A DNA stretch of 64,000 nt, taken from positions 221,900 through 285,899 of the forward strand of contig JAYONY010000002.1 in the NCBI GenBank assembly GCA_038121585.1, written 5' to 3'. How positions within the stretch are numbered: position 1 is the stretch's first letter; each line of letters opens with the position of its first letter. This document shows, piece by piece, positions 7,834 to 55,987 of the stretch. Both the position numbers and the translations under genes were made by a program. The notes under the pieces are model-generated. The model was not told where the DNA came from. It saw only the letters and a list, made by a program, of their open reading frames with translations, and did no database searches. The stretch is from an archaeon (GTDB lineage Archaea > Nanobdellota > Nanobdellia > Pacearchaeales > GW2011-AR1).

Positions 7834-9848
7834 AGGCGTTTTTGCAGGTTCTTAAATTCTCTTCGATCAATCACATTTACTAAGCGCCAACCGTTCTTTT
7901 CAGGTACTGGTGCTGTTTTAGCATAACTCATCATTCGTTTTCGCGCATCATTACTCAGAAGTGTTTCTTCACGCACTGATGTTGCAAGTCGTTTTGCACT
8001 CGGAATAATGCTTCCTCGTGACATAAATGTAAACTTACCATGTTTCTTTTCTGAGATTATTTGTCCGGTGTTAACGCCAATGCCAAAGTCAATTTTTTCT
8101 TTTGCTTTTGCGTTGTACGTTGTTAGCATTGATTCAATCTCACTAGCGATTGTAATAGCGAGGAATGAACTATCTATTTTTTTAGTGAGTAGTGGTGAAA
8201 AAATAGCGATACGGTAATCTCCATCCACATAGATGTTTGCACCTTCTTTTTTCGCTTTTGATAATGCTTGATTGAGAACGGGGGCATTGTTTTCTGAGAG
8301 TTCTGAGCGCACATGTATTACAAGTATCGTTGCTTCTTCAGTCATGCCATCATCAACTTCATTTTTACTTGTTTGTGGTGTCGCGTGTACTGATTGTTCT
8401 TTTTTAGGTGATGTACTTGTTGTTGGTGTTGAACTAATACGGGGAAGGGGGTTTTCTTGTGTTTGTGGGGGTGGGCTTATTGTTGGGCTGTTAGGGTCTC
8501 GTATTACGATTGGCCCTCGTGCTTTTACATGAATTGCTTGGCGTTTAAGTAGGTGGGCGTAGACTATTATGATGAGTAGTAAGAGTATGAGCCCTCCTAG
8601 TACAAGTCCTGCAGTGCTTGTTGCAAGACCGACAAATCCTTCTTGCACATCATCAATACTGATTGCATTACCTGTTAGGGGGACTCGCCCTAATTGTTTT
8701 GGTTCTGTACCATCATCAACGCTGATGTCATATTCTCCATCGGGGGCTTTAAGTCTGAATTTATCAACTTCTCCGACTTGGATGCTCATCTGTACTATCT
8801 CAGTTCCTGACCCAATTGAGACTTCAACTGATTTCTCATACGCAACATTGCCTGTGTTAGTTACTATGAGTGTATCGCCTAATACTGTGAAGTGTGCTGT
8901 TGCGAATTCTTCAACATAAAATAATTTCTTTCTAGTTATCGCTCCTGTTTGAGCTTCTATTTTCCAATACCCCGCTTCAAAATTCTCTCCTATTTCTAGT
9001 ACTTGCTCCTCTCCTGATGATACAACAATTTTTTGGTAGATAGTATTGCTTGGTGTGTAGAGTGTAATGCTAAGGTCTCCTGAAGCAACATCTTGTACTT
9101 GGTTAATGCCGTTTACGGTATAGAGAAGTGATGTTCCTGGCAGTACATTTTGTGAGCCTACTTCTATTTTGATGTCAGTGAGTACTTCTCGTACATCAAT
9201 GACTTCATTAACGGTCCCTTCATTATTAACGCTGCCGCTCATATCTTCTTCAAATACCCGTAGGAGGAGTGTGTGTGATCCTGGTTGTGCGGTTGGAGGA
9301 ACCGTGAGAGGAACTTCAAAGACTCCGTCACTCACTGTTTTGGTTACTGAGAGGTCAAGATCATTAATGCGTGCTTCAACAAATCCTTGTACTGCGTGAC
9401 CGTTGCGTTTTGTAGCAGTTCCACTAATCACAAATGTTTGTCCTGGATCGATTACTTGCACATCAATATCTGCAAAAACGTCAATGCCGTCAGTTATCTC
9501 AAATTCTTGACTTGTCCCTGTTTCTGCTCCGTGGCCTGCTTGTAAGGTGCAGGCTCCGCGTGTTCCATCAAGTACTGTTGAGTCGAGTGTAATTGCTATT
9601 GGAACTGCTTTTTCTTCACCGCCATCAAGATTTATGGCATTACGATATACTTCTACAGCTCCACTGCTGCATGCAAGGTTGACAACTAGAAAGTCGTTAG
9701 CATCATTATTTGGTTGGAGGGTGACGGTAATTGTTAAATCATCTCCTACATTATAGACCGTGTTTGGTTGGGTAAAGAATAATTCAGCAGATGTCACTGG
9801 TACTACCGCTAAAGCTAGAACAATAGCTAGGAGTAACCCTCTTTTCAT
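7830..9848 (-). CDS. single-pass surface receptor-like protein with C-terminal class III cyclase-homology-like domain
   Basis: Signal peptide LLLAIVLALAVVPVTSA, about 400 aa beta-rich ectodomain, TM LVLGGLILLLLIIIVYAHLL, P/T/S linker. The C-terminal part aligns by eye to a cyclase homology domain (VDGDYRIAIFS, FGIGVNTGQII, FTFMSRGSIIPSAKRLA). Confidence 0.5.
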   Translation of the reverse strand: MKRGLLLAIVLALAVVPVTSAELFFTQPNTVYNVGDDLTITVTLQPNNDANDFLVVNLACSSGAVEVYRNAINLDGGEEKAVPIAITLDSTVLDGTRGACTLQAGHGAETGTSQEFEITDGIDVFADIDVQVIDPGQTFVISGTATKRNGHAVQGFVEARINDLDLSVTKTVSDGVFEVPLTVPPTAQPGSHTLLLRVFEEDMSGSVNNEGTVNEVIDVREVLTDIKIEVGSQNVLPGTSLLYTVNGINQVQDVASGDLSITLYTPSNTIYQKIVVSSGEEQVLEIGENFEAGYWKIEAQTGAITRKKLFYVEEFATAHFTVLGDTLIVTNTGNVAYEKSVEVSIGSGTEIVQMSIQVGEVDKFRLKAPDGEYDISVDDGTEPKQLGRVPLTGNAISIDDVQEGFVGLATSTAGLVLGGLILLLLIIIVYAHLLKRQAIHVKARGPIVIRDPNSPTISPPPQTQENPLPRISSTPTTSTSPKKEQSVHATPQTSKNEVDDGMTEEATILVIHVRSELSENNAPVLNQALSKAKKEGANIYVDGDYRIAIFSPLLTKKIDSSFLAITIASEIESMLTTYNAKAKEKIDFGIGVNTGQIISEKKHGKFTFMSRGSIIPSAKRLATSVREETLLSNDARKRMMSYAKTAPVPEKNGWRLVNVIDRREFKNLQKRL

Positions 9849-9868
9849 GCTCTACCCACGTCGAGAAG

Positions 9869-9878
9869 CTATATAAAT
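9869..9878 (-). promoter_or_regulatory. TATA box candidate for the 7830..9848 gene
   Basis: CTATATAAAT centred about 25 nt from the ATG at 9848. Confidence 0.4.
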
Positions 9879-9894
9879 GTTGTCGGGCGGTACT

Positions 9895-9903
9895 ATTATA
9901 AAT
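9895..9903 (+). promoter_or_regulatory. TATA box candidate for trpS
   Basis: ATTATAAAT centred about 25 nt upstream of ATG 9924. Confidence 0.4.
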
Positions 9904-9923
9904 GTGGAATATCTAGTGCTTAT

Positions 9924-11051
9924 ATGGCAAAAAAGAGTTTTTCAGTTACGCCCTTTGACGTGCAGGGCACGGTTGATTATGCTCGTTTAGCGAAAGAGTT
10001 TGGATTGCAATCCATTGATGACAAACTTTTGCAGCGTTTTGAAAAAGCTGCTGGCGATTCACACTTTATGTTGCGGCGAGGCATTTTTTACGCGCATAGA
10101 GATATGAATTGGTTGCTTGATCAATTTGATAAGGGAAACAAGTTCTTCCTCTATACGGGTATTGGTCCGTCAGGTCCGATTCATCTAGGACATACGCTCG
10201 TCTGGCAGTTTACAAAATGGTTGCAGGACACGTTTGGATGTGAATTATGGTTTCAGTTTACTGATGATGAGAAGTTCTTGTTTAAGGATTTGACAACAGA
10301 GCAAGTGAATGAGTACATGGTGGAAAATATGAAAGATATTATCGCGCTAGGGTTTGATCCGAAGAAAACGCATTTTGTGATTGATACAAAGCACGCGGAT
10401 GTGTTGTATCCTGAGGCGATTAAAGTTGCAAAAAAAATTACGTTTTCAATGGTAAAGGCAACATTTGGTATGAACGAAAGCTCTAACATTGGACAGATTT
10501 TTTATACCTCAATGCAAGCTGTACCTGCATTTTTACCGTCCATAGTACATAATAAGAAGATGCCGTGCCTTATCCCGCATGCGGTTGACCAAGACCCGCA
10601 CTTTAGGTTAACACGAGATATTCTCCCAAAACTTGGGTATCCAAAACCTGCTTCGATTCAATGTCCGTTCATGCCTCCGTTGAAAGGTGCTGATGGTAAG
10701 ATGTCATCTTCGGACCCAACATCGTATATTGCACTCACTGATGATGCAAAGGCTGTTAAGAAGAAAATTAACAAGTATGCGTTCTCAGGAGGTAAGGATA
10801 CTGTTGAAGAGCATCGTAAGAAGGGTGGTAATCCTGACATTGATGTTGCGTATCAGTATTTACGTATTATGTTTGAGCCGGATGACAAAAAACTCAAGAT
10901 AATTCACGATGATTACAAGGCAGGAAAGTTACTTTCCGGCGAACTTAAAGCAATCTTAATTGAAAAAGTCAACGAGTTTTTAGTGAGTCATCAAAAAGCG
11001 CGTGCGAAAGTTACGAAGAAAACAATTGAGAAGTTTATTTGGAAGGGTTAG
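9924..11051 (+). CDS. trpS: tryptophanyl-tRNA synthetase (archaeal/eukaryal type)
   Basis: HIGH-type GPSGPIHLGH, KMSKS-type KMSSS, class I fold length 375 aa. Confidence 0.9.
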   Translation: MAKKSFSVTPFDVQGTVDYARLAKEFGLQSIDDKLLQRFEKAAGDSHFMLRRGIFYAHRDMNWLLDQFDKGNKFFLYTGIGPSGPIHLGHTLVWQFTKWLQDTFGCELWFQFTDDEKFLFKDLTTEQVNEYMVENMKDIIALGFDPKKTHFVIDTKHADVLYPEAIKVAKKITFSMVKATFGMNESSNIGQIFYTSMQAVPAFLPSIVHNKKMPCLIPHAVDQDPHFRLTRDILPKLGYPKPASIQCPFMPPLKGADGKMSSSDPTSYIALTDDAKAVKKKINKYAFSGGKDTVEEHRKKGGNPDIDVAYQYLRIMFEPDDKKLKIIHDDYKAGKLLSGELKAILIEKVNEFLVSHQKARAKVTKKTIEKFIWKG

Positions 11052-11871
11052 CGTTCAAATAATCAAGTATTCCATTTGCAATGCCTTCTGCAATACTATC
11101 TTCATGTTCAGTAAGGTATTTTCGATCGCGAGCGTTCGTAATAAATCCTGATTCTACAAGTGCTGCTGGCATAGTCGTGTTTCTAAGAACGTTGAAATTA
11201 CCGCTTCTGAGCCCTTCATAGGATTGTGAGAATCCTAGCACGCTTGCTTCAAGACTGTCCTCGATACCATCTTGCAATTCTCGTCCGAGCGCGTGTCCTT
11301 TCGTTGATCCTGGATGATGGTACACACGCACTCCTTGTGCTTTGTCATTAGTAAATGCATTTACGTGCAAGCTTACAAACAGATCCGCTTTGTTTGTATT
11401 TGCGTATTGTGCTCGTGTTTTGAGTGGTGTGATATCGGTATGATCGTCTCGTGTGTAGAGAACGTTAATATTATTCTCTTTTAGTAATTCGCCTACTTTG
11501 AGTGCTTGATCAAGTACTAAGTCTGATTCTCGCAAAGTTCCATGTACTGCTCCTGGATCGTACAGTCCTTTTGTGGCATTACTCATCCCATGGCCTGGGT
11601 CAAGTACGACTGTTGCTCGTGGTACGGTAGGCACTGAGGGTTTCTTATCTGCTGGGGGTGTAAGTGATTCAGATTGTTGTGAGAGATAGGTTGTGAGGGG
11701 AATGCCTTCTGCTTCAGCTTGGAATACTGCTTCAGAATGCAGTGGTTCTGCCTGAGGCGCTTTTTGTACATGCTGATCGATATACTTACTTCCAAGGCCA
11801 AGTACTGTTACGGTAAGCCCTGCTAGTGCTGTGTCAAGTACTTTTCCTACAAGATTTTTTTCTTTTTTCAT
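11035..11871 (-). CDS. N-acetylmuramoyl-L-alanine amidase (Amidase_3 family), membrane-anchored or secreted
   Basis: VVLDPGHG, DLFVSLHVNA, GNFNVLRNTTMPAALVESGFITN are typical AmiA/B/C-CwlB motifs. N-terminal hydrophobic anchor. Overlaps the trpS 3' end by 17 nt, convergent. Confidence 0.8.
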   Translation of the reverse strand: MKKEKNLVGKVLDTALAGLTVTVLGLGSKYIDQHVQKAPQAEPLHSEAVFQAEAEGIPLTTYLSQQSESLTPPADKKPSVPTVPRATVVLDPGHGMSNATKGLYDPGAVHGTLRESDLVLDQALKVGELLKENNINVLYTRDDHTDITPLKTRAQYANTNKADLFVSLHVNAFTNDKAQGVRVYHHPGSTKGHALGRELQDGIEDSLEASVLGFSQSYEGLRSGNFNVLRNTTMPAALVESGFITNARDRKYLTEHEDSIAEGIANGILDYLNANPSK

Positions 11872-15193: not shown

Positions 15194-15631
15194 TCAATTA
15201 CAGGTAACTGGTTGACCAATCGCCGGACAAAAGTCGCCATTCGGTAGCTCTGGAGCTATTTGAATTGCTTCACCCGAGTTAAACGCATCTACACCTGCAG
15301 CAACAACTGTAGAATTAGCTTCTACGAGTGCATTGACTGGAGGAGCGTCAAATGTGTTCCCTTCATCACCGATGATTCGGAACCCAAGTGCGGCATCTGG
15401 ACCTCCGCTGTTACGGATTACGCTTACGCTAACAGCGCTTGTAGTTCCATCGATAGTACAACTTTGGACTTCCATTGCAATTGGTAAGCAATTAGCGCCA
15501 GATTCAAATTCCCCGCTTGCGTTGTCAATAGCGCTTCGGACAACCGCCCAAACGATAGCAACAGCCGCAATAACGAGTAAGATGATCAGCACGTTCGCGA
15601 CAACTGGACTCAACCCCTTTTTCTTCATCAT
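15194..15631 (-). CDS. archaeal type IV pilin-like protein (class III signal peptide)
   Basis: MMKKKGLSPVVANVLIILLVIAAVAIVW is a prepilin-type KGLSP motif followed by a hydrophobic helix. Paralogue of the next gene. Confidence 0.7.
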   Translation of the reverse strand: MMKKKGLSPVVANVLIILLVIAAVAIVWAVVRSAIDNASGEFESGANCLPIAMEVQSCTIDGTTSAVSVSVIRNSGGPDAALGFRIIGDEGNTFDAPPVNALVEANSTVVAAGVDAFNSGEAIQIAPELPNGDFCPAIGQPVTCN

Positions 15632-15682: not shown

Positions 15683-16120
15683 TTAAGGGAGTGAACAAAT
15701 CACTGATGCTCCATCTCGAGGACAATAATCTCCGTTAGGTAATCGTGCCTCAATCCAGATTTCATCATTAGCAAAAAATTGTGCATTATTAGCAATGGGT
15801 ATTGCCTCTGCTTCGAGTAAGTCTTCTCCAGCCCCGCTCTCAATTACATTTCCGTTTGACTCACTCACTATACGGAAGCCTAAGGGGGTATTTGGACCTC
15901 CAGCATTCCTAAAAACAGTAATTTCTCCATTAAAAGGATTACCTTCAACACATCGCAACGCGTCCATTCTAACACTAAAGCACGTTGCTCCTGAATCAAA
16001 CTCTTCCCCTGTTGTTTCAATTGCTCCGCGAATAATACCCCAAATAAGTCCTATTGCACCGACGACCATGAGTATTAGAAGTACGCTCGTAACTATTGGA
16101 CTCAACCCTCTTTTCTTCAT
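15683..16120 (-). CDS. archaeal type IV pilin-like protein (class III signal peptide)
   Basis: MKKRGLSPIVTSVLLILMVVGAIGLIWG. ATG 16120 preferred over the TTG at 16126. Shares RN(S/A)GGP, LGFRI and LPNGD(F/Y)CP with the neighbour. Confidence 0.7.
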   Translation of the reverse strand: MKKRGLSPIVTSVLLILMVVGAIGLIWGIIRGAIETTGEEFDSGATCFSVRMDALRCVEGNPFNGEITVFRNAGGPNTPLGFRIVSESNGNVIESGAGEDLLEAEAIPIANNAQFFANDEIWIEARLPNGDYCPRDGASVICSLP

Positions 16121-16140
16121 TATCAATAAAGCAGTATGTA

Positions 16141-25541: not shown

Positions 25542-28500
25542 CTAAAATATGTCTAGAACAGTATCTTTCTTCTCTTCCTTAGGTTGCTCTTGAGATTGCT
25601 CTTCGCCTGACTGTTGTGCATCCTGACCAAACATTTGTTTCTTAACGGCTTCTCGAACTTCAGAATCTTTAATCTCTTGTTCTATCTCATCTTCAAACAC
25701 TGCTTCTTCTTGCTCTTCAAATGTGGGCTGATGCTCATCAAGTTCAAGTTCTTGCCCTTGCGAGGATGGTGCTACAAACTCATCAGAGTCAACTGGTATT
25801 GCATCATTCAGTGAAGGAATATCTTCTGCAGGGGAGTGTTCAACCCCTGGGTTATACTCGTCTTCGTGATACGTTGATTGCGAAGAAGGAATCGGTTGTT
25901 GCTCTGATTCTTGTGAGTCTGCCTCACGTGTTACTTGCGTATTCTGGCTATCTTCATAGTCCCATTCAGCAAGTAATGCTTCAGTTTCGTCTTCTTGCCC
26001 AGCGGTTTTTTCTTGCTTTTCACGCATTTGTTGTTCTAGTTCATCACGCATTGATTGGTGATGTGCTGGTTGTTGTGAATGTTGCTTATCTACAAGTTGT
26101 GTAGCTTGATGCATTTGCGGAGGTGCTGATTGCTCGGGTTCTGGAGGTGAATTGTTTACTTGTTGTTCTGCCTGAGGGGAGTCTTTTACGGATTGATTTT
26201 CTACTGGTGGGTGTTCTTGGGATTGCTGTGGTTCCACCACTGGCGATTGTGGTGCTGGTTGCGCAACCACTGGTTCTTTAGGTGGTGCTCCAGTGGCCTG
26301 TTGTTCTATTTGCGCAACAACTTCAGAAACGTTCTTAGCAGCATCAGCATTAACTGAAATACTATCGATTCCTTCTTGCACTAAGAATGCTGCCATCTTT
26401 GGCTTGCTACCTGCCTGGCCACAAATTGATGTTTTCACGCCATACTTTTTACATCGTCGAATAACATACCGTATAGAGTTAAGAACTGCAGGATTCATTT
26501 CATCATAGAGGTGTTGTACGTGTTCATTATTTCTATCAAGTGCGAGGGTATATTGTGTTAAATCGTTTGTTCCAAAACTTACAAAGTCAATGCCAACTTC
26601 ACATAAATCATTGATGATTTGCACTGCAGCAGGTGTTTCAATCATAATCCCAAACTGGACGTTTTTAGGCATATGCATGTTTGCAAAAATAGCTTTCGCA
26701 TCTTGTACCTCATCAACAGAAATAACTTGTGGGAGCATAACACCAATTGTTTTATTCGGAAATTCATCAGAAAGTTCTTTAATCGCGGTAAATTCTGCTT
26801 CTAAAATATCTTGATTTTGCAAGCTGAAGCGTATTCCATGATTACCAAGCATGGGGTTGGCCTCTTTGTCTTCAGGAGCTCCTGCTAACGTTGCGTACTC
26901 GTCTGAGCGAACATCACTTGTTCTAAACCACACGCTTTCAAACGGTGTAGCAATAGTTTTCATACCTTCAAAAAGTGCTGCTACATACTCTTTGATTTTT
27001 TGTTCGGTAACAAACCATGCTGGGTGTTTTCCAATGCTAGCTATTATTCCTTCAAGCCGTACGAGCCCTACTGCTTTTGATTGGGATAGTGCTGCTCGCT
27101 GTGCATATTCGGGCAGGTCTACAATAACTTTGATAGTGGTGTTTGTTGGGACTATTGGTTCTATTGTTACTTGTTTAGCTTCACCCTTGCCTGCTAAGAC
27201 TCTACCAGTAAATCCGTCAACCGTAACTTCTTGTCCGTCTTTAAGTGTCTGTGTTGCATTATCCGTGCCTACAACTGCAGGAATCCCCATTTCTCGTGAG
27301 ACAATTGCAGCGTGTGAAGTTACCCCTCCTTCATCAGTCACTATTGCAGCTGCTTTTTGCATTGATACAACCATATCTGGATTAGTCATGGTGGTTACAA
27401 GTACGTCTCCTTGTTCTACTTTAGAAAGTTCTGAGATATCGTGAATGATACGCACTCTTCCTGGTGCAACGCCTGGAGATGCAGGGAGTCCTTTTAGAAG
27501 TACTTCGCCTGTTACCTCTCCCTCGCTAACCTTTACTTCAGTGGTGATGGGGCGTGATTGGGTAATGTAAATTGTCCCTTCAGTAATCGCGAATTCAATG
27601 TCTTGTGGTTTTTTGTAGTGTGCTTCAAGTCGTTTAGCCAGCTGCGCTAAGACTTTAACTTCGTGGCCTGAAAGCACTTCTTGACGCCCTCGTTCCTCAG
27701 TTAATTTCACGAATTCATTTTTACCGGAGGAGTTACGGGTGTATGCTGCTCGCTTAAATGCTATTTTTCTATCAACTATTTCAAGGTCTGGTGTGACTGC
27801 ATAATGGTCTGGCACGATTTGTCCTGAGACAATCCCAACGCCAAGCCCCCATACTGATTCAATGATAATATTTGGATCGTTTTTCAAGGGGTTTCGAGAG
27901 AACATAACGCCTGATTTGTCTGCAGCGACCATTGTTTGTACGACAACTGCAAGGTATGCTTTATCATGGGCAAATCCTTTCTTTGTTCGATAATAAATTG
28001 CTCGTGGAGTAAAGAGTGAAGAAAATGCTTTTTTAACAGCTATAATGAGGTGGTCTCCTCCTTTAATATTCAGATATGAATCTTGTTGCCCTGCGAAACT
28101 CGCATCTACGAGGTCTTCTGTAGTAGCGCTTGATCGAACGGCAACAAAAGGGGGTTCGTGGGAAACTCGCAGAATATCAAGTGCATCTTCGCTAGCATGC
28201 TTATTAGTTGAGAGCTCTTGCTTATCAACGTCTAAAATGTCATATGCTTCAGTTATTGCATCAGCAAGATCTTGTGGCATCGGTGAATGTTCAATTGCAT
28301 GGCGTATTTTTTCAGATGCTGCGGTGAGTTCGTTAGTGTTTTCAATATCAATGCCTTGCAGTAAGTGTTTAATCGTGTCTGCTATACGTGCAAATTCGAT
28401 AAAATGCTGGTAAGCTTTTGCGGTAACGACAAATCCTGGGGGTACTGGAAACTTAGCATTATACATTTCTGCAAGGCTCGCTCCTTTACCACCGGCTATT

Positions 28501-28565
28501 GCTACATCATCATTTGATAATTCTGAGAACCACTTAATGAGTGAATCACGCTCTTTTCCTTCCAT
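25542..28565 (-). CDS. ppsA: phosphoenolpyruvate synthase with about 250-aa acidic Q/E/P-rich C-terminal extension
   Basis: ATP-grasp N-domain (GGKGASLAEM), phospho-His swivel domain (TSHAAIVSREMGIPAVVG), PEP-utilising TIM domain (FVSFGTNDLTQY). Same frame continues without a stop through the low-complexity tail. Confidence 0.9.
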   Translation of the reverse strand: MEGKERDSLIKWFSELSNDDVAIAGGKGASLAEMYNAKFPVPPGFVVTAKAYQHFIEFARIADTIKHLLQGIDIENTNELTAASEKIRHAIEHSPMPQDLADAITEAYDILDVDKQELSTNKHASEDALDILRVSHEPPFVAVRSSATTEDLVDASFAGQQDSYLNIKGGDHLIIAVKKAFSSLFTPRAIYYRTKKGFAHDKAYLAVVVQTMVAADKSGVMFSRNPLKNDPNIIIESVWGLGVGIVSGQIVPDHYAVTPDLEIVDRKIAFKRAAYTRNSSGKNEFVKLTEERGRQEVLSGHEVKVLAQLAKRLEAHYKKPQDIEFAITEGTIYITQSRPITTEVKVSEGEVTGEVLLKGLPASPGVAPGRVRIIHDISELSKVEQGDVLVTTMTNPDMVVSMQKAAAIVTDEGGVTSHAAIVSREMGIPAVVGTDNATQTLKDGQEVTVDGFTGRVLAGKGEAKQVTIEPIVPTNTTIKVIVDLPEYAQRAALSQSKAVGLVRLEGIIASIGKHPAWFVTEQKIKEYVAALFEGMKTIATPFESVWFRTSDVRSDEYATLAGAPEDKEANPMLGNHGIRFSLQNQDILEAEFTAIKELSDEFPNKTIGVMLPQVISVDEVQDAKAIFANMHMPKNVQFGIMIETPAAVQIINDLCEVGIDFVSFGTNDLTQYTLALDRNNEHVQHLYDEMNPAVLNSIRYVIRRCKKYGVKTSICGQAGSKPKMAAFLVQEGIDSISVNADAAKNVSEVVAQIEQQATGAPPKEPVVAQPAPQSPVVEPQQSQEHPPVENQSVKDSPQAEQQVNNSPPEPEQSAPPQMHQATQLVDKQHSQQPAHHQSMRDELEQQMREKQEKTAGQEDETEALLAEWDYEDSQNTQVTREADSQESEQQPIPSSQSTYHEDEYNPGVEHSPAEDIPSLNDAIPVDSDEFVAPSSQGQELELDEHQPTFEEQEEAVFEDEIEQEIKDSEVREAVKKQMFGQDAQQSGEEQSQEQPKEEKKDTVLDIF

Positions 28566-43998: not shown

Positions 43999-45525
43999 TT
44001 ATGTTCCAGTCGCAGCTCGTGAGCGTAGTAATCTATTATACTTCAATGCAAACCGGTGTGCTTCATCACGAACGTTCTGAATTAGTTTTTGACCGGGTCT
44101 ACGAATGCTAAATTTCATTGGTCGTTTTCGTCCTGGCATGTAAATTTCTTCGAGTTTTTTAGCGAGTGAGATTACATTTGCTTTGAGGCCAAGTTCTCGT
44201 AGTATTGATTGTGCTGCGCCGAGTTGCCCAATGCCTCCGTCAATAACGATTAAATCTGGCAAGGGGAGTTCGTCCATGACGACTTTGATGTACCGGCGTC
44301 GAACGACTTCGCGCATTGCTTCAAAGTCGTCTCCGTCGTGCACTGTTTTAATTTTGAATCGGCGGTAATTGTCTTTGTAGGGTTTTCCATCTCGAAATTG
44401 CACCATTGAAGCTGTTGTATGGGTGCCTCCGAGGTGTGATATGTCAAAACATTCTATGACTCTTGGTAATCGGTCGAGCTTGAGCATATCTTGCAGGTCA
44501 AGCAGTTTTTCGCGTTCGCCAAAGTGGGTACGCACAACATTTGCAAATGCCAAGTCTAATAATGCTTTCTTACTTCCTCGCTTAGCGAGAGTAACAGTTA
44601 CTGGTTTACCACTGTTTTGGGTTAATGCTTCAGCAATTGCAGGATTGACTTTTTCAGGGACGATAAGTTCTTTTGGTGGGGGCGTTAGGGCGTAGTATTG
44701 TATAATAAATTCTTCAATACATCCTTCAAAATAATCGAATTCAAATTGTTGTTTATTCTCGAGTATTCCTTTGTAAATATTAAAGAGAAGTAAGTAGACT
44801 TTCCCTTCAGATACTGCATAGTGCAGTACATCTGCTTCAAAACTTCTTCTGAGTTCAACATTTTGTTTTTCTTTAAGTATCTGAAGCGCTTCTATTTTTG
44901 TTCTAAGGCCTAACGCATACTCATAATTTGTTTTATCTGATGCATCGCGCATTTCTTTCTCTAGTTTTGTGATGAGAGTGTCAACGTTTCCTTTGAGTAT
45001 ATTGCGAGCAATTTTGAGTTTTGCCTTATATTCTTCTGGATTTTTACGCAATATTTTTTCTCGTAGCGGCGAAGCTTTCCGATCTAAGATGCCAAATCTT
45101 CGCGTGAGGAGCTTGTACACTTCCTGACGCATGCGCCCACGAGTAAACGGCCCGAAGTATTCGCCTTGCGCATCACGCATTCGAGCAACTTCCAGATACG
45201 GAAACTCGTCTTTGGTTAACCGTAAGTATGCGTACCTGCGAGAATCTTTGAGATCAATATTAAATCGAGGATAGTGGAGTTTTATTAGATTATTTTCAAG
45301 GAGTAATGCTTCAACTTCTGTTTTAGTAACAATAAAGTCTATTGAGTGAATGTGTTTGATAAGGAGTAACGTCTTAGGGTCATGTTCCTTTTTTTGAAAG
45401 TACGAACTAACACGTTTACGAATGTTCTTTCCTTTACCCACATAGAGAATCCTTTGGTCTTTGTCTTTGAACAAATAACAACCAGGGTCTGTTGGGAGAT
45501 CGGTTAGTTTTTGTGGTGTGATCAT
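43999..45525 (-). CDS. uvrC: excinuclease ABC subunit C, short form lacking the C-terminal (HhH)2 domain
   Basis: GIY-YIG GCYLFKDKDQRILYVGKGKNIRKRVSSY, UVR-like LEKEMRDASDKTNYEYALGLRTKIEAL, RNase H-like IECFDISHLGG. Ends right after DEAHRFALKYNR. Confidence 0.85.
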   Translation of the reverse strand: MITPQKLTDLPTDPGCYLFKDKDQRILYVGKGKNIRKRVSSYFQKKEHDPKTLLLIKHIHSIDFIVTKTEVEALLLENNLIKLHYPRFNIDLKDSRRYAYLRLTKDEFPYLEVARMRDAQGEYFGPFTRGRMRQEVYKLLTRRFGILDRKASPLREKILRKNPEEYKAKLKIARNILKGNVDTLITKLEKEMRDASDKTNYEYALGLRTKIEALQILKEKQNVELRRSFEADVLHYAVSEGKVYLLLFNIYKGILENKQQFEFDYFEGCIEEFIIQYYALTPPPKELIVPEKVNPAIAEALTQNSGKPVTVTLAKRGSKKALLDLAFANVVRTHFGEREKLLDLQDMLKLDRLPRVIECFDISHLGGTHTTASMVQFRDGKPYKDNYRRFKIKTVHDGDDFEAMREVVRRRYIKVVMDELPLPDLIVIDGGIGQLGAAQSILRELGLKANVISLAKKLEEIYMPGRKRPMKFSIRRPGQKLIQNVRDEAHRFALKYNRLLRSRAATGT

Positions 45526-46239: not shown

Positions 46240-49029
46240 TTACACTATTTTCTTCAAAAACTGACCAGTATGTGAAGCTTTGACTTTGACGATGTCCTCA
46301 GGTGTTCCTTGTGCTACGATTGTCCCTCCTTCGTCCCCTCCTTCAGGGCCGAGGTCTATAATCCAATCTGCTGATTTAACAACGTCTAAATTATGTTCAA
46401 TAACGACCATGGTATTCCCTTTTGAAACGAGGCCGTGGAGTACGTCGAGGAGCATATTGATATCATGGAAGTGCAGTCCTGTTGTTGGCTCGTCTAAGAG
46501 ATACAGTGTTTTACCGGTCCCTCGCTTTGCCAGTTCTCGTGTTAACTTAATTCGTTGTGCTTCCCCACCTGATAAGGTGGTTGCACTTTGTCCTAATTTA
46601 ATATAGTCAAGTCCAACATCATGAAGTGTTTTTATTTTGCGATGGATTGATGGTACTGCTTCAAAATGCGTAAGTGCTTCTTCAACACTCATGTCAAGCA
46701 CTTCAGCAATGTTTTTCCCTTTGTAGCGTACTTCGAGTGTTTCTCGATTATAGCGTTTTCCTTTACATTCCTCACATTCAACGTAGACGTCTGGCAAGAA
46801 ATTCATTTCGATTTTAATTGTTCCGTCTCCTTGACATTTCTCACACCGCCCGCCTTTCACATTAAATGAGAATCGTCCTTGGTTAAAACCGCGCATTTGC
46901 GCGTCTTTGGTTGTTGCAAAGAGTGTTCTAATATCATCGAAAACTTTAATGTACGTTGCTGGATTGCTTCGTGGTGTTCGGCCAATCGGACTTTGGTCAA
47001 TTACGATTATCTTGTCGATATCTCCATTAATCTTCAAGCTTTTGTGTTTTCCAGGTTTATCGGTTGAACCGTTAAACTGTTTCGCCATTGATTTATGCAG
47101 GATATCATGAATTAAGGTTGATTTTCCACTCCCTGAAACGCCGGTCACACAGGTTAAGACGCCTGTTGGGATTGAGACATCAATATTTTTGAGATTATGC
47201 TCGGTGCATCCAGTTAGTTCGATGCTCCCATTTTTATCACGTCGTTTAGTTGGCACCTTGATTTTCTTGGTACCTGCTAAGTATTGTCCAGTGAGCGAGT
47301 TTTTATTTTTCTTTATTTGCTCAGGTGTTCCTTCAGCGATAATTTTTCCACCGTGGATGCCTGCGCCAGGCCCAATATCTACGACATGGTCTGCTCGCTC
47401 AATGGTTTCTTCATCATGTTCTACAACAACTAATGTGTTTCCTAAGTCTCGGAGTCGGTGAAGTGTATCGATGAGTTTTGCATTATCTCGTTGGTGCAGG
47501 CCAATGGATGGTTCGTCAAGAATGTATAGAATTCCCATCAGGTTTGCTCCAATTTGTGTTGCTAAACGAATTCGTTGTGCTTCTCCACCTGATAACGTTC
47601 CCATTCGTCGTGATAAGTTCAGATAGCCTAAACCGACATTATTCAAAAACGTTAGTCGTGTAATAATTTCTTTTAAGATGAGTCGTGCGATTTGCGTCTC
47701 TTTTTTGGTCAGGGTGAGTTGTTCAAAAAACGCTAAACAATCTCTAACTGACATATCAGTTACGTCAATAATTGATTTATCATTAATTCTAACAGCAAGT
47801 ACTTTTTCTTTGAGGCGGCGTCCTGCACACGCTTTACACTCATGTGTTTGCATGTATTTTTCAAAGTTTTTTCTCCGCCAGTCTGAGTCTGTTTGTTTAT
47901 AGAGTCTGTCTGATTGAGGGATGAGCCCTTCCCATCCATCTTTAAGGTTCATGCTCGCTCCGTTAGACCATCGTCCTTTGAGTGGCTTATCAGTGCCGTA
48001 TAATAACACATCAAGCTGTGTTTTTGTTAGGTCTTCTATGGGGGTAAATAAGTCGAATTTGTATTTGCGCGCGACGACTTGCATTTGTTGCGCGCGCCAG
48101 GTGAGGTCGAGTTTTCCATAGATGGCAATTGCTCCGTCCATGATGCTTTTGCGTTTGTCTGGAATAATGAGGTCAGGGTCGAATTCTGTGCGGATGCCAA
48201 GCCCGTTACATTCTTCGCACGCGCCGAATGGACTGTTAAACGAGAACATGCGCGGTTGGAGTTCTTCAAATGCTATCCCACACTCTGGACATGCTAAGTT
48301 GGCGGAGTATGTTTTGACAGTGCCCTTGCTGTCTTGTACCATAACAAGTCCCTCTCCCTTGCCGAGTGCTGCTTCGGTTGCTTCAGTTACACGTGATAAG
48401 TCTTCTGGTTTAACTCTATCAATCACAACGTAGATATCGTGTTTAACGTACCGATCTAAATTAACTTTCTCATCTGTCCGTTGTATTTTCCCATCAACGT
48501 ATACCCGAGTATACCCTTCTTTATTGAGATCTACAATGAGTTGTTCATATGTTCCTTTTTTCTGGCGAATGATAGGGGCCATAATTACTATATCTTCATC
48601 ATGATCTTCAGCAATGTGTTGTGCAATGCGTTCTGGCGATTGTGCTTCAATCTTGATATTGTGGTCTGGACAGTGCGGTGTTCCAACACGGGCAAAGAGG
48701 AGTCTCAGATAGTCATATACTTCAGTCGTTGTTCCTACCGTGGAACGAGGATTTTTTGAAGTTGTTTTTTGCTCGATAGAAATCGCTGGTGACAAGCCAT
48801 CGATTGACTCAACATCTGGCTTATTCATAAGACCTAAGAACTGCCGTGCGTACGCGGATAAGGATTCTACGTACCGTCTCTGACCCTCAGCGTACAAGGT
48901 ATCAAATGCAAGTGTTGATTTTCCAGATCCTGACAGGCCAGTTATGACTATAAATTTGTCCCGTGGTAATGTCACTGTAATATTCTGTAAATTATGCTCT
49001 TTCGCTCCGCGAATAACAATGTCTTTCAT
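46240..49029 (-). CDS. uvrA: excinuclease ABC subunit A
   Basis: Two ABC modules (GLSGSGKSTLAFDT, GVSGSGKSTLIHD, two LSGGEAQRI signatures) and zinc-finger CxxC pairs. ATG 49029 (MKDIVIRGAKEHNL) preferred over the track start at 49095. Confidence 0.95.
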   Translation of the reverse strand: MKDIVIRGAKEHNLQNITVTLPRDKFIVITGLSGSGKSTLAFDTLYAEGQRRYVESLSAYARQFLGLMNKPDVESIDGLSPAISIEQKTTSKNPRSTVGTTTEVYDYLRLLFARVGTPHCPDHNIKIEAQSPERIAQHIAEDHDEDIVIMAPIIRQKKGTYEQLIVDLNKEGYTRVYVDGKIQRTDEKVNLDRYVKHDIYVVIDRVKPEDLSRVTEATEAALGKGEGLVMVQDSKGTVKTYSANLACPECGIAFEELQPRMFSFNSPFGACEECNGLGIRTEFDPDLIIPDKRKSIMDGAIAIYGKLDLTWRAQQMQVVARKYKFDLFTPIEDLTKTQLDVLLYGTDKPLKGRWSNGASMNLKDGWEGLIPQSDRLYKQTDSDWRRKNFEKYMQTHECKACAGRRLKEKVLAVRINDKSIIDVTDMSVRDCLAFFEQLTLTKKETQIARLILKEIITRLTFLNNVGLGYLNLSRRMGTLSGGEAQRIRLATQIGANLMGILYILDEPSIGLHQRDNAKLIDTLHRLRDLGNTLVVVEHDEETIERADHVVDIGPGAGIHGGKIIAEGTPEQIKKNKNSLTGQYLAGTKKIKVPTKRRDKNGSIELTGCTEHNLKNIDVSIPTGVLTCVTGVSGSGKSTLIHDILHKSMAKQFNGSTDKPGKHKSLKINGDIDKIIVIDQSPIGRTPRSNPATYIKVFDDIRTLFATTKDAQMRGFNQGRFSFNVKGGRCEKCQGDGTIKIEMNFLPDVYVECEECKGKRYNRETLEVRYKGKNIAEVLDMSVEEALTHFEAVPSIHRKIKTLHDVGLDYIKLGQSATTLSGGEAQRIKLTRELAKRGTGKTLYLLDEPTTGLHFHDINMLLDVLHGLVSKGNTMVVIEHNLDVVKSADWIIDLGPEGGDEGGTIVAQGTPEDIVKVKASHTGQFLKKIV

Positions 49030-49150
49030 ACTAATACTGCCTAAAAAAGGGTTTATCAAGCTTTGGTTAACGCCGTTTTTATCGAAGAATCTCAATGTGT
49101 GAAGGATGAAATTTCAAAGCCTTTTTAATAGCTAAAAGGTTATTCTAATC

Positions 49151-52261: not shown

Positions 52262-52343
52262 ACGTGCATATCGATTCGCTTGTTTATAATTATCTCGCGT
52301 CTAGAATAGTATGATTTTTATACACTCCTTATTTTTGTCATCT

Positions 52344-53021
52344 ATGATTATTGGTATTGACGATGCAGGACGAGGGCCGCTGATTGGCCCGATGTATTTA
52401 GCAGGTGTGCTTTTAACACCTGAGCAAGAAGCGATTCTCAAACAAGAAGGCATTACTGATTCGAAAGCCTTAGCACATTCGTCTCGGCTCAGAATGGCTG
52501 CAATTATCAAGAAGAATTGTACAAAGTATCATGTTGTTGAATCAACGCCTGCTCAAATTGATAAGGCAGTTGATGGTGGGGTAAATTTGAACACCCTTGA
52601 AGCACAAAAAACGGCGGATATAATAAATGAACTCAATGACAAAGATACCCAAATCAAAGTCGTAGTTGATTGTCCTTCAGTTAATACGATGGCCTGGCGT
52701 GGTACGCTCTTAGAATACGTACATCCCCGAGCGAATCTTCAGGTGATTTGTGAGCACAAGGCGGATGCAAATCATATTTCTGCTGCTGCTGGGTCGATTT
52801 TAGCAAAAGTTGCGCGTGAGGAGGCTGTTATGAGCCTTAAACAGCAATACGGAGACTTCGGTTCGGGCTATCCAGCAGACCCTAAAACCAAGTCATTTCT
52901 AGAAAATAAGGGTAAGGAACTTGCGGATACGGGCATTTTTCGTAAATCTTGGTCTACCTGGAAAAAGATGTATCCTGCTGGGAGCACGAGTAAAGACCAA
53001 CGCTCACTATCTGACTTCTAG
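52344..53021 (+). CDS. rnhB: ribonuclease HII
   Basis: MIIGIDDAGRGPLIGPM (DEDD Asp/Glu motif), DSK, GSGYPADP. ATG 52344 preferred over the track start at 52311. Confidence 0.9.
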   Translation: MIIGIDDAGRGPLIGPMYLAGVLLTPEQEAILKQEGITDSKALAHSSRLRMAAIIKKNCTKYHVVESTPAQIDKAVDGGVNLNTLEAQKTADIINELNDKDTQIKVVVDCPSVNTMAWRGTLLEYVHPRANLQVICEHKADANHISAAAGSILAKVAREEAVMSLKQQYGDFGSGYPADPKTKSFLENKGKELADTGIFRKSWSTWKKMYPAGSTSKDQRSLSDF

Positions 53022-53062: not shown

Positions 53063-55987
53063 ATGACGTATATCAAGAAATTGGTGATGCACGGGTTCAA
53101 ATCATTCGCGAATAGGACTGAAATAGCGTTCGATCCTGAGATGAATGTTGTTGTTGGACCGAATGGTTCGGGAAAGTCTAATGTCTCGGATGCACTCTGT
53201 TTTGCGTTAGGGAGATTATCGATTAAGTCGATGCGTGCAGCAAAAGCTAAGAATTTAATCTTTATGGGTACAAAAACAAAGAAGCCAGCTTCTGAAGCGA
53301 AGGTTGATGTTGTATTTGATAATGAGAAGGGAACGTTTCCAATTCAAAAAGATGAAGTGGTACTCACAAGAATAGTTCGTCGGTCAGGTCAAAGTATTTA
53401 CAAGATTAATGGGGAAACAAAAACCCGTGGTGACGTGATTGAGACGCTTGCCCAAGCAGGGATTGACCCACATGGATTTAACCTGGTACTCCAAGGTCAA
53501 ATTCAAGCGATTGTAAAAATGCATCCTGAAGAGCGACGAAAAATCTTGGAGGAAGTTGCGGGTATTGCAATTTATGAATCACGAAAGGAAAAGTCGATGA
53601 AGGAACTTGAAAAAACTGAGGCACGGCTTAAAGAAGTAGGTGCAGTACTCAGAGAACGAACTGGTTTTTTGAGGAACTTAGAGCAAGAACGTTCACAAGC
53701 GTTGAAATTCAAGGATCTTGAAAAAACAATTGAGCGTGCTAGGGCTTCGATTGTACAAAAAAAACTTTCCAATAAAGAGAAAGAACTTGCTTCGATTCAA
53801 AAGTCTATTGGGGAAAAGACAAAGCAGAAAGACGAGATGCTTCAAAAAGCTGAATCCGTTGAGGAAGGCATTACTAAAATTCAGGGTGAGATTGAGAAGA
53901 TTAACGAGCATATCAAGCGTTCTACCGGTACTGAACAAGAAACGTTGCGTAATGCAGTGGCTAATTTACGTGCTGAACTTGAGGGCATGCGTGTTCGTAG
54001 AGAGAACTTCTCAAATCGAAAAGATGAAATTGCTAGGAGAATCGAGCAAATGCAAGCGAGTATTCCAGAGCATGAACAAGAAATTGCGGAACTTAGAAAA
54101 GAGTCACCACTTGTAGCAAAAAAACAAGCTGAACTTGCTAAGAAAAAAGAGCTCTTAGCACAACTTGAAGATGAGCGCAAAAAGGTGTATGCACTCAAGT
54201 CTGAACTCAAAGGGCTTAAAGATAGGTTAAAGGATAAGGAAGCGAGTGTTGTCAGAGTTGGTACGGAGTCTGATACGTTACTCAAACAGATTGAAGAGGT
54301 GACGCAAGGGTTTATTCATAAGGACATTGTTGCGTGTGAGGCAGCGCTTGAAACGATGCGTTCTGATGCAACAACGCATAAAGAACAAATTGAACATCAT
54401 GCAAATGAGGTGGTGAAAACCATTGAATCAATCTCAGCTGCCCAGTCAAAAATTGCCGCTGCAGAGGAAATCAAAGGTAATATTGCAGATATTGATGTCT
54501 GCCCACTCTGTCAGAATACGATGACGGAAGAACACTTCAAGCATGTAACCAATGATTCTGAGAAGAAAATTAAAGAAGCAACAGAGATTATTACTCAGGC
54601 AGAACAAACTCGTGCTGCTAGTTCAAAAGTTCGTGAGGACTTACGAACAAAACTTGCAGAGTTAGAAGTTGCGATTGCTCGTGCTGAGCGTGAACGAACA
54701 CACCATACGCTAGTTAAGGATAAGCAATTACTGCTTAAGGAACGTGTAGAACAAGAGAAAGTGCTTAAGGAAGAGATTATAGAACTTGAGAAGCGTCGTG
54801 ATTCTCTAGAAAAGAAAACGATGGACACGAGCAGTCTTGAAGAACGATATGCCGCGACACTACGCGAAATTGAAGAAATATCCTCTCGTACTGAGAAAGA
54901 CTTGGATACTACGCTACTCTACAAAGAGCGAGAGCTTGAAAATATTCGCGGTATTGTAAAGCGAAGCTTAAGCGATAAAAAAGAAGTTGAGGAGGAAATC
55001 GCTGAATTAACAACTGCGATTGATGCTAAGAAAAAAGTTCTTGCTCAGAAAGAAAAAGAAGATGAGGAAATGAATGCTCGATTCAAGAAGCTATTTGAGC
55101 AGAGAGATGCATTGCAAAAGCAAGTGCAAGAAGAGAGTTATAATTTATCATCACAACAAAGTCAGTGGCGCCAAATCGAAGACCAGATTAATTACCTAAA
55201 AGTCGGTAATGCGAAGATTGACGCTGAAAAAGAAGCGTTAGAAATGGAACTTGCTGAATGTGGAGAGTTCGAACTCTTGCCTGGCAGTATTGAAGCACTC
55301 CAAGAACGACTTTCTAAAGCGAAAGCAACTATTCAAACGATTGGCTCAATTAACATGCGAGCATTAGAAGTCTACGACGAAGTTAAGGCAGAATATGATA
55401 AGGTACAAGAAAAAGTAGATACTCTCGATAAGGAGAAACTTGAAATTCTCAAGATTATTGATGAAATCGATGCGAAGAAGAAGCGTACATTCATGAAGAC
55501 GTACAGGGGTATTAACGAATTGTTTGTTCGTAACTTTTCACAGCTTTCTCGTAAAGGGACTGCAGCGCTTGAGATTGAGAATAAACAGGATATCTTTTCT
55601 GGTGGGGTGAATATTGCTATTAAGATGGGTAAGGGGAAGTACTTTGATGTTACCTCGCTTTCTGGCGGAGAGCAGACGCTCATTGCGTTATCATTATTAT
55701 TCGCAATTCAAGAACACAAGCCATATCACTTCTACTTTTTTGATGAAATTGATGCCGCTTTGGACAAGCGTAATTCTGAACGTCTCTCAGCACTCCTTAA
55801 GAAGTATAAACAAGACGGACAGTATCTTGTGGTAACACACAATGACGCAATTATATTGGATTCAAACGTGCTTTACGGGGTTACAATGCACGAAGGAGTC
55901 TCTAAGATATTAAGTATTGAAGTCGGTGATGCAGCTGAGAAAAAGCAAGTAGAACAACCTCAAGAAGCGAGTTCTAGAGCGGAGTAG
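53063..55987 (+). CDS. smc: SMC-family chromosome ATPase with SMC-type heads and a central Rad50/SbcC-like CxxC zinc-hook motif instead of a hinge
   Basis: GFKSF, GPNGSGKSNVSDA, NLVLQGQI, EEVAGIAIYESRKE, LSGGEQTLIALSLLFAIQ, FDEIDAALD. Length 974 aa. CPLCQNTMTEEH at aa 480-491, the midpoint, flanked by heptad-rich sequence on both sides. Confidence 0.85.
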   Translation: MTYIKKLVMHGFKSFANRTEIAFDPEMNVVVGPNGSGKSNVSDALCFALGRLSIKSMRAAKAKNLIFMGTKTKKPASEAKVDVVFDNEKGTFPIQKDEVVLTRIVRRSGQSIYKINGETKTRGDVIETLAQAGIDPHGFNLVLQGQIQAIVKMHPEERRKILEEVAGIAIYESRKEKSMKELEKTEARLKEVGAVLRERTGFLRNLEQERSQALKFKDLEKTIERARASIVQKKLSNKEKELASIQKSIGEKTKQKDEMLQKAESVEEGITKIQGEIEKINEHIKRSTGTEQETLRNAVANLRAELEGMRVRRENFSNRKDEIARRIEQMQASIPEHEQEIAELRKESPLVAKKQAELAKKKELLAQLEDERKKVYALKSELKGLKDRLKDKEASVVRVGTESDTLLKQIEEVTQGFIHKDIVACEAALETMRSDATTHKEQIEHHANEVVKTIESISAAQSKIAAAEEIKGNIADIDVCPLCQNTMTEEHFKHVTNDSEKKIKEATEIITQAEQTRAASSKVREDLRTKLAELEVAIARAERERTHHTLVKDKQLLLKERVEQEKVLKEEIIELEKRRDSLEKKTMDTSSLEERYAATLREIEEISSRTEKDLDTTLLYKERELENIRGIVKRSLSDKKEVEEEIAELTTAIDAKKKVLAQKEKEDEEMNARFKKLFEQRDALQKQVQEESYNLSSQQSQWRQIEDQINYLKVGNAKIDAEKEALEMELAECGEFELLPGSIEALQERLSKAKATIQTIGSINMRALEVYDEVKAEYDKVQEKVDTLDKEKLEILKIIDEIDAKKKRTFMKTYRGINELFVRNFSQLSRKGTAALEIENKQDIFSGGVNIAIKMGKGKYFDVTSLSGGEQTLIALSLLFAIQEHKPYHFYFFDEIDAALDKRNSERLSALLKKYKQDGQYLVVTHNDAIILDSNVLYGVTMHEGVSKILSIEVGDAAEKKQVEQPQEASSRAE

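Follow-up and report, generated by a model that had tools for sequence, protein, structure and literature searches.

The window analyzed here, a 64,000-nt stretch of contig JAYONY010000002.1 from a GW2011-AR1 archaeon (Pacearchaeales; GCA_038121585.1), contains a variant smc gene at nt. 53063..55987, preceded by the RNase HII gene rnhB (nt. 52311..53021; Pfam RNase_HII), both on the forward strand. The open reading frame (ORF) begins with an ATG start codon and encodes a protein of 974 amino acids (a.a.) that matches Pfam SMC_N (a.a. 3–947, 4.4e-54). An initial reading of the letters alone (hereafter, the sequence-only reading) had described this protein as an SMC with canonical heads, no hinge, and a Rad50/SbcC-type zinc hook at the tip of its coiled-coil arm. 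We found that the hinge has indeed been lost, with a predicted zinc hook at the apex in its stead, and refer to the protein as the hook SMC; all of its features given below lie on the forward strand.

Every SMC head motif quoted in the sequence-only reading was found in the 974-a.a. ORF. The N-terminal half of the ABC ATPase head (a.a. 1–167, nt. 53063..53563), whose best PDB matches are Pyrococcus Smc heads, carries GFKSF (a.a. 11–15), the Walker A motif GPNGSGKSN (a.a. 32–40, nt. 53156–53182), and the Q-loop LQGQI (a.a. 143–147, nt. 53489–53503), with EEVAGIAIYESRKE at a.a. 163–176. The C-terminal half (a.a. 771–954, nt. 55373..55924) contains the signature LSGGEQTL (a.a. 866–873, nt. 55658–55681), the Walker B/D-loop FDEIDAALD (a.a. 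893–901, nt. 55739–55765), and the H-loop VVTHND (a.a. 923–928, nt. 55829–55846). The protein, therefore, has the split ABC ATPase head of the SMC type, complete from the Walker A motif and Q-loop to the signature, the DE-x-DA-x-LD D-loop, and the H-loop.

Profile and structure comparisons place this head with SMC and not with Rad50 or ASRP. Among the NCBIfam models, SMC_prok_A (538.7 bits) and SMC_prok_B (517.2 bits) score far above ASRP, which reached 115 bits in four separate stretches (equivalog cut-off of NF045487, 300 bits), and the Rad50 models, which reached ≤96 bits (equivalog cut-offs, 700–1087 bits). The SMC scores also lie under the curated equivalog cut-offs of TIGR02169 (729.4 bits) and TIGR02168 (567.35 bits), as expected given that ~170 profile positions, those of the hinge, are missing; each SMC match runs in two stretches that skip the hinge, the first of which pairs query positions 3–469 with profile positions 1–477. 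A sequence search of the PDB returned Pyrococcus Smc heads (5xei, 1.8e-101; 4i99, 2.5e-82) and Bacillus subtilis Smc (5xg3, 2.8e-73), with the Pyrococcus and Bacillus Smc heads spanning 1e-101 to 1e-68 and followed by eukaryotic SMC1-4, compared with 7e-11 at best for Rad50. Using the full-length AlphaFold2 model (106-sequence alignment; mean pLDDT, the predicted local distance difference test score, of 76.9), Foldseek likewise listed SMC proteins first (6yvu_B, 1.4e-33; 5xei; 5xns, template modelling (TM) score 0.84; 4i99, TM score 0.89), with a Rad50 at rank 10. The D-loop agrees with this placement, reading DEIDAALD in the hook SMC and DEPT in two true Rad50 proteins (L029 and L126) that bear the same hook motif. 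The expectation that the head is of the SMC type, unlike the DEPT-bearing head of Rad50, was thus borne out by the NCBIfam models, the PDB search, Foldseek, the D-loop, and the head tree described below. Annotation pipelines give hook SMCs the plain label "chromosome segregation SMC family protein", under which the difference between hook and hinge is lost.

The absence of the hinge is equally clear. Pfam SMC_hinge (PF06470) gave no match in the 974-a.a. protein, even at E ≤ 10, and a hinge hidden Markov model (HMM) made from 140 hinge-bearing relatives matched those 140 relatives and none of 159 hook proteins. The AlphaFold2 model consists in this region of helices 216–344, 356–414, and 422–474, a loop at a.a. 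475–488, and helices 489–586, 589–608, and 615–732, with no globular domain; the central region thus lacks the hinge by all three approaches, as had been claimed. In the model, the antiparallel coiled-coil arm between the two head halves, as expected of an SMC arm, is predicted to fold back at a.a. 475–488. The ascending strand (a.a. 168–474, nt. 53564..54484) has predicted breaks at a.a. 202–218, 345–355, and 415–421, and the descending strand (a.a. 489–757, nt. 54527..55333) has breaks at a.a. 587–588 and 609–615, opposite those of the ascending strand. The helical residues flanking the hook number ~307 and 312, in line with the ~310 a.a. of coiled coil that the sequence-only reading had estimated for each side of the midpoint.

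Among named hinge-bearing relatives, the closest is a Woesearchaeota SMC (P0152; 1142 a.a., Pfam hinge at a.a. 508–618), and it shows what was removed. By BLASTP, query residues 1–393 align with its residues 1–401 at 40% identity and query residues 500–954 align with 664–1142 at 33% identity, and this colinear alignment is broken only at the hinge region, where 106 a.a. of the hook SMC stand in place of 262 a.a. including the hinge. The shortfall in length, attributed to a missing hinge in the sequence-only reading, is accounted for in this way. The length of the arm is tightly constrained in the family: the distance from Walker A to the first Cys is 448 a.a. in 117 of 143 family members and that from the first Cys to LSGGE is 386 a.a. 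in 113, each distance being identical in ~80% of them.

The tip of the arm is a 14-residue loop (a.a. 475–488, nt. 54485..54526), modelled by AlphaFold2 within a helix-loop-helix, which contains the motif CPLC (a.a. 480–483, nt. 54500–54511). This is the apical CxxC that marks Rad50/SbcC proteins, and it is predicted to bind zinc. Translation of nt. 54482–54550 reads IADIDVCPLCQNTMTEEHFKHVT, with the codon of C480 starting at nt. 54500; the stretch CPLCQNTMTEEH occupies a.a. 480–491 (nt. 54500–54535), at the midpoint where a CPLC-type motif had been reported, and the extended motif CPLCQNTMTEEHFKHV occupies nt. 54500–54547. With only five Cys in the 974 a.a., the probability that a CxxC lies by chance at most five residues to either side of the apex is ~2.5e-4 by our own arithmetic. 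Across 106 aligned close relatives, C480, P481, C483, H491, and V495 are invariant, and D478, L482, T488, and H494 are kept at ≥90%. Another Cys, Cys425, directly follows a predicted coiled-coil break, where the last helix ahead of the hook begins; it is kept at ≥90% among close family members and is not conserved in distant ones.

To compare this apex with known proteins, we searched a profile of 46 apex fragments (12–40% identity to the query), in which only the columns C, P, and C do not vary, against all PDB sequences. The four best matches, and the only significant ones, were all Rad50 hooks, namely the Pyrococcus furiosus Rad50 hook (1l8d, 1.2e-9; 6zff, 1.3e-9), the human RAD50 hook (5gox, 5.7e-5), and full-length RAD50 (9q9h, 6e-4), with generic coiled coils beginning at 6.5e-3. 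In the alignment to 1l8d, the family consensus DiCPlCkskiTeeHvkhV is paired with CPVCGRELTDEHREEL, placing CPVCGRELTDEH opposite CPlCkskiTeeH; the likeness to the Pyrococcus hook to which the sequence-only reading had pointed is real. Its further prediction, of a Pfam Rad50_zn_hook (PF04423) match near a.a. 470–500, held in position (a.a. 468–506) but not in strength for the whole protein (16 bits, E = 0.011, under threshold); the isolated apex scored 22.2 bits (E = 1.2e-4), and 41 of the 46 family apex fragments were matched, the best at 2.6e-7. The same CPLC..IT.EH motif is found in L029, a true Rad50 (D-loop DEPT) encoded in a Nitrososphaeria genome. Modelled in isolation with 46 diverse homologues, the apex (a.a. 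425–545) formed a helix-loop-helix hairpin with a pLDDT of 96.9 and a predicted TM score of 0.81. The sequence likeness argues for homology between this hook and Rad50 hooks, and a rad50 gene is its most likely source.

The hook is a conserved feature of a sizeable family. The identical 974-a.a. protein occurs on three independently assembled contigs, one of 409 kb from NCBI and two, of 140 kb and 6.3 kb, from Logan assemblies of separate runs. Its 120 best homologues in the database share 55–66% identity and measure 946–1080 a.a., plus two intein-bearing proteins of 1491 a.a.; all 120 have exactly one CxxC, at the equivalent position, and none has a Pfam hinge. Among cluster representatives, where the family reaches down to 37% identity, every full-length relative of ~950–1020 a.a. 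has CPxC at its midpoint, while all relatives of 1100–1200 a.a. have a hinge and lack the midpoint CPxC. Overall, the apical CPxC is invariant in 159 of 159 family proteins across this range of identity, and the conservation of the two Cys among orthologues, which had been proposed as a check, therefore stands.

To gauge the spread of the family, one genome per prokaryotic species was scanned with the degenerate DNA pattern [D/E]-x-C-P-[L/F]-C-x3-[I/M]-T-x2-H, for which ~17 chance matches were estimated. At least 120 species-representative contigs matched, and among the matches listed, ~116 lie at residue ~480 of ~955-a.a. ORFs with an SMC Walker A, LSGGE, and DE[IV]DAALD; the record titles of those listed are almost all Nanoarchaeota, Pacearchaeota, Woesearchaeota, or Nanoarchaeia. 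Three side observations concern this set. One contig labelled Candidatus Dojkabacteria bacterium (JAFCCB010000021.1) has a typical 956-a.a. hook SMC within a metagenome-assembled genome (MAG) of the candidate phyla radiation, which is probably a binning error, and two contigs of a single Woesearchaeota-labelled MAG (L013 and L035) have an identical hook sequence, suggesting strain duplication or bin redundancy. Some hook-SMC genes are also interrupted, right behind the GSGKS of Walker A, by a ~530-a.a. insertion in which Pfam recognises intein and LAGLIDADG domains (P0020, P0046, P0121, and P0128; loci L024, L061, L072, L092, and L109; ORFs of 1479–1516 a.a.), the junction in L061 reading ...GANGSGKS|LSYD...

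The relation of the family to other SMCs was examined with a neighbour-joining tree of the head halves (87 sequences, 444 columns, 100 bootstraps). All 29 hook proteins, together with four apex-less relatives of ~800 a.a., form one clade (support 99/100), and all 53 hinge-bearing SMCs fall outside it, the nearest outside sequences including the Woesearchaeota SMC. The clade thus sits among hinge-bearing archaeal SMCs, which, with the NCBIfam, PDB, and Foldseek results, speaks against the heads belonging within Rad50, an outcome that the sequence-only reading had named as fatal to its proposal. Gene order points the same way. In the window, rnhB directly precedes smc on the same strand, as it does in a hook locus of 37% identity, and in a 61%-identical hook locus it lies two genes upstream; across related loci, it occupies position −1 on the same strand in 37 and position −2 in 13. 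An RNase HII gene is likewise found two genes upstream of the hinge-bearing Woesearchaeota smc. By the head tree and shared gene order, the hook SMC is an orthologue of canonical archaeal SMCs, and the single clade and common rnhB-smc order point to replacement of the hinge in place, within an ordinary smc gene, probably once, and not the origin of a separate paralogue. The replacement probably took place by recombination with a rad50 gene.

The apex-less relatives (P0140, P0141, P0144, and P0146; 779–804 a.a.) have neither a hinge nor a CxxC, with a plain coiled-coil middle, and lie in or beside the hook clade on the head tree; one cluster member of this set is PIU75690.1 from Candidatus Pacearchaeota. 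P0144 lacks the equivalent of query a.a. ~384–611, and with it the hook and the outer third of the arm. Three further SMC relatives (P0197, P0238, and P0247) are also devoid of hinge and CxxC.

Taken as a whole, we consider it likely that the gene encodes the chromosomal condensin-like Smc of a Nanoarchaeota/Pacearchaeota-labelled DPANN archaeon, in whose ancestor the hinge was replaced by a Rad50-type hook, and that this Smc dimerizes through zinc. With less confidence, we lean towards the wider statement that a DPANN radiation (>100 species-level genomes labelled Pacearchaeota, Woesearchaeota, or Nanoarchaeota) has as its sole SMC a hinge-less protein with a zinc hook captured from Rad50, and that one sub-lineage has lost the apex altogether.

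In the Rad50 hook (1L8D), one Zn2+ is held by two Cys from each of two chains. By analogy, each hook-SMC protomer would fold back into an antiparallel arm of ~45 nm that carries the ATPase head at its base and the CPxC loop at its tip, and two protomers would be joined tip to tip through one Zn2+ and four Cys, two per chain. The zinc-joined tips would give the same V- or rod-shaped dimer as a hinge does, and ATP-dependent engagement and release of the SMC-type heads may then entrap and translocate DNA as in ordinary Smc complexes. A kleisin would presumably bridge the heads and close the ring, and the putative role of the hook SMC is chromosome organisation or segregation. Zinc binding and dimerisation between chains are thus expected from the Rad50 precedent, and kleisin partnership and cellular role from that of ordinary Smc complexes.

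Other explanations must be weighed against this one. A Rad50/SbcC orthologue or an ASRP (ClsN/Sph) could have been misread as an SMC, an idea to which the apical hook, the weak NCBIfam matches to ASRP and Rad50, and a length nearer that of Rad50 (~880 a.a.) than that of SMC all lend something. The head comparisons refute it, since those matches fall far short of their own cut-offs and of the 539 and 517 bits for SMC, the D-loop is DEIDAALD in place of DEPT, the PDB sequence and fold searches prefer SMC by ~90 orders of magnitude, and Mre11 was not found in the window; we regard this identity as very unlikely. The sequence being metagenome-derived, an assembly chimera or frameshift artefact joining smc to a rad50 fragment also comes to mind. 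Such a chimera, of which the sequence-only reading had warned, is refuted by the identical protein on the three independent contigs and by the architecture shared with >150 homologues and ~116 further species-level genomes, and its probability is very small.

Two alternatives concern what the protein does. The hook protein may be a specialised paralogue for repair or tethering, akin to Rad50, RecN, or Smc5/6, with a canonical hinge SMC encoded elsewhere in the genome; no kleisin was found near the gene, uvrA and uvrC lie 4–9 kb upstream, and the Rad50-type hook is otherwise tied to DNA-end tethering. This reading seems improbable to us, as the gene shares its rnhB-smc position with the hinge-bearing Woesearchaeota smc, the hook protein is colinear with that SMC at 33–40% identity save for the hinge, its clade sits among canonical archaeal SMCs, and none of the contigs examined bears both SMC types, the genomes being small and the contigs ~0.4–0.9 Mb. 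Alternatively, the CPxC, with H491 and H494, may be an intramolecular zinc knuckle, a redox motif, or a hairpin cap, leaving the protein to dimerize through arm or head contacts or to act as a monomer. The subfamily motif C-x2-C-x7-H-x2-H could provide all four ligands within a single chain, its H491 being invariant and its H494 kept at ≥90%, and the ~800-a.a. relatives with neither hook nor hinge in the same clade suggest that a dimerising apex may be dispensable. However, the wider family keeps only C, P, and C and not the second His, the apex is significantly similar to Rad50 hooks in which four Cys of two chains hold the zinc, and P. furiosus Rad50 has the same His at +11, which makes this alternative likewise improbable.

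Several observations do weigh against a hook-bearing chromosomal Smc. The deep nodes of the head tree, a neighbour-joining tree on 444 columns, are unresolved; the Pfam hook score of the single sequence is under the gathering threshold; and Foldseek on the apex model ranked 1l8d first but weakly (E = 5e-3, TM scores 0.39–0.58), as helical hairpins are generic. In addition, neither a kleisin (ScpA) nor ScpB was detected in the 64-kb window or in ~130 related loci. A Pfam scan of plausible ORFs in the window and the Pfam-listed neighbours in related loci showed no ScpA, ScpB, Mre11, or Rad50; phmmer searches with ScpA and ScpB of a Baldrarchaeia genome over all collected loci gave no match; a database search with that ScpA returned only five close relatives; and a regular expression for a ScpA-like N-terminal motif gave no match, a search that was uninformative. 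The recurrent neighbours, clustered over the ~130 loci, are rnhB, a surface protein, an apurinic/apyrimidinic (AP) endonuclease, a DUF7557 protein, and a Toprim protein, none of which is a candidate partner subunit.

The missing kleisin is weak evidence, however, because hinge-bearing DPANN smc loci likewise have no linked scpA and because Pfam and NCBIfam overlook a clear archaeal ScpA. In the Baldrarchaeia smc-scpA-scpB operon (L131), the 222-a.a. ORF between smc and scpB (9530–10198, forward strand) has no Pfam or NCBIfam match, although a PDB search pairs it with Pyrococcus ScpA (4i99_C, 1.7e-6). The family libraries have a blind spot for archaeal kleisins, and a missing ScpA annotation in DPANN genomes means little.

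Relative to the Smc of Smc-ScpAB (Pyrococcus 5XEI and 4I99), the hook SMC has the same head sequence, motifs, and fold, an antiparallel arm of similar length (~305–310 residues per strand), and, as seen with the Woesearchaeota Smc, colinear heads and arms and the same rnhB-adjacent position. It differs in that the hinge (PF06470, ~165–190 a.a.) is replaced by the 14-residue CPxC loop and in that the kleisin partner was not found in the window and related loci. With the Rad50/SbcC hook (PF04423; 1L8D, 6ZFF, and 5GOX), it shares the CPxC at an antiparallel coiled-coil apex and the extended C-P-x-C-x4-T-x2-H, but its heads are of the SMC type and its arms are longer than those of archaeal Rad50. 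The Mre11/SbcD gene usually adjoins that of Rad50/SbcC, whereas no Mre11/Metallophos partner was found adjoining the hook smc or elsewhere in the 64-kb window.

Zinc hooks are known from other archaeal SMC-superfamily proteins, the ASRPs (ClsN/coalescin, Sph1/Sph2; Yoshinaga et al. 2022, PMC9389158), and from many LmuB proteins (PMC10586767). Both are separate families whose heads, unlike those of the hook SMC, are non-SMC; the ASRPs resemble it in being archaeal with a zinc hook instead of a hinge but are ~600 a.a. long, and the hook SMC scores 115 bits on the ASRP model against 539 on that of SMC. The "hinge-less" SMCs of marine Actinobacteria, reported in 2025 and explicitly without a CXXC motif (PMC12153180), have SMC-type heads and arms and likewise no hinge; being bacterial and without CXXC, they are nearer to the ~800-a.a. 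apex-less relatives than to the hook family. A survey of archaeal SMCs (PMC8665677) puts DPANN homologues in the "canonical aSMC" group without comment on the hinge.

The nearest precedents for the combination are engineered. When the hinge of B. subtilis Smc is exchanged for the P. furiosus Rad50 hook, the chimera supports normal growth with the same dependence on arm length (Bürmann et al. 2017, PMC5344682), and, conversely, yeast Rad50 works after its hook is exchanged for a MukB hinge (PMC6969161). These swaps make the mechanism of a zinc-hook SMC plausible. Like the Smc(Zh) chimera, the hook SMC joins Smc heads and arms to a Rad50-type hook, and arm length, which matters in the chimera, is nearly invariant in the natural family; unlike that artificial protein, it is natural, ancient, and widespread in archaea, and known here from sequence. 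The statement that such a protein had not been described holds for natural proteins, as the searchable full-text literature (subscription-only papers were not covered) yielded no report of a natural SMC bearing a zinc hook, but not for engineered ones, given the published hinge/hook chimeras (PMC5344682, PMC6969161). The chimeras had already predicted a workable hook SMC, of which the family is a natural counterpart.

The hinge counts among the three parts that define an SMC. The roles suggested for it are DNA binding, a gate through which DNA enters, and interaction with the heads while loops are extruded. The conserved swap of hinge for hook across tiny DPANN archaea suggests that the hinge is not needed for SMC function, and the natural, ancient, and strongly conserved hook-SMC lineage argues, on evolutionary grounds, that one type of dimerisation domain can stand in for another. 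The near-invariant arm geometry, for its part, suggests that it is this geometry that counts, as Bürmann et al. concluded from their chimera (PMC5344682). If the wider statement on the DPANN radiation is true, nature has repeated the laboratory hinge swap, and contacts between hinge and DNA, as well as opening of the hinge, would be dispensable for SMC loading and translocation. Reviews, including one from the Gruber laboratory, separate the families by dimerisation domain, SMC having a hinge and kleisin and Rad50 a zinc hook and Mre11 (PMC10586767), a rule that would then not be absolute. The hook SMC presents a clear domain exchange between two branches of the SMC superfamily, and its family offers compact natural proteins for testing hinge-independent loop extrusion. 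With neither the hinge required of a strict Smc nor the heads of Rad50 or ASRP, the protein is best filed as an SMC orthologue with a Rad50-type zinc hook.

Elsewhere in the window, bacterial-type uvrA and uvrC (GIY-YIG/UvrC domains) lie on the reverse strand at nt. 46240–49095 and 43999–45525, respectively, 4–9 kb upstream of smc. The archaeon also encodes an N-acetylmuramoyl-L-alanine amidase (nt. 11035–11871, reverse strand; Amidase_3, 2.4e-43). Its N-terminus resembles a membrane or secretion segment, and this peptidoglycan hydrolase may have bacterial cell walls as its target. Two paralogous ORFs of ~145 a.a. lie side by side (nt. 15194–15631 and 15683–16126, reverse strand). Both start with MKK(K/R)GLSP followed by a hydrophobic helix, which has the appearance of an archaeal type IV pilin-like signal, both close with a conserved domain that contains Cys, and neither has a Pfam match. 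Finally, a protein similar to phosphoenolpyruvate (PEP) synthase/pyruvate phosphate dikinase (nt. 25542–28565, reverse strand; PPDK_N, 2e-98) has a C-terminal extension of ~250 a.a. rich in Q, E, P, and S.

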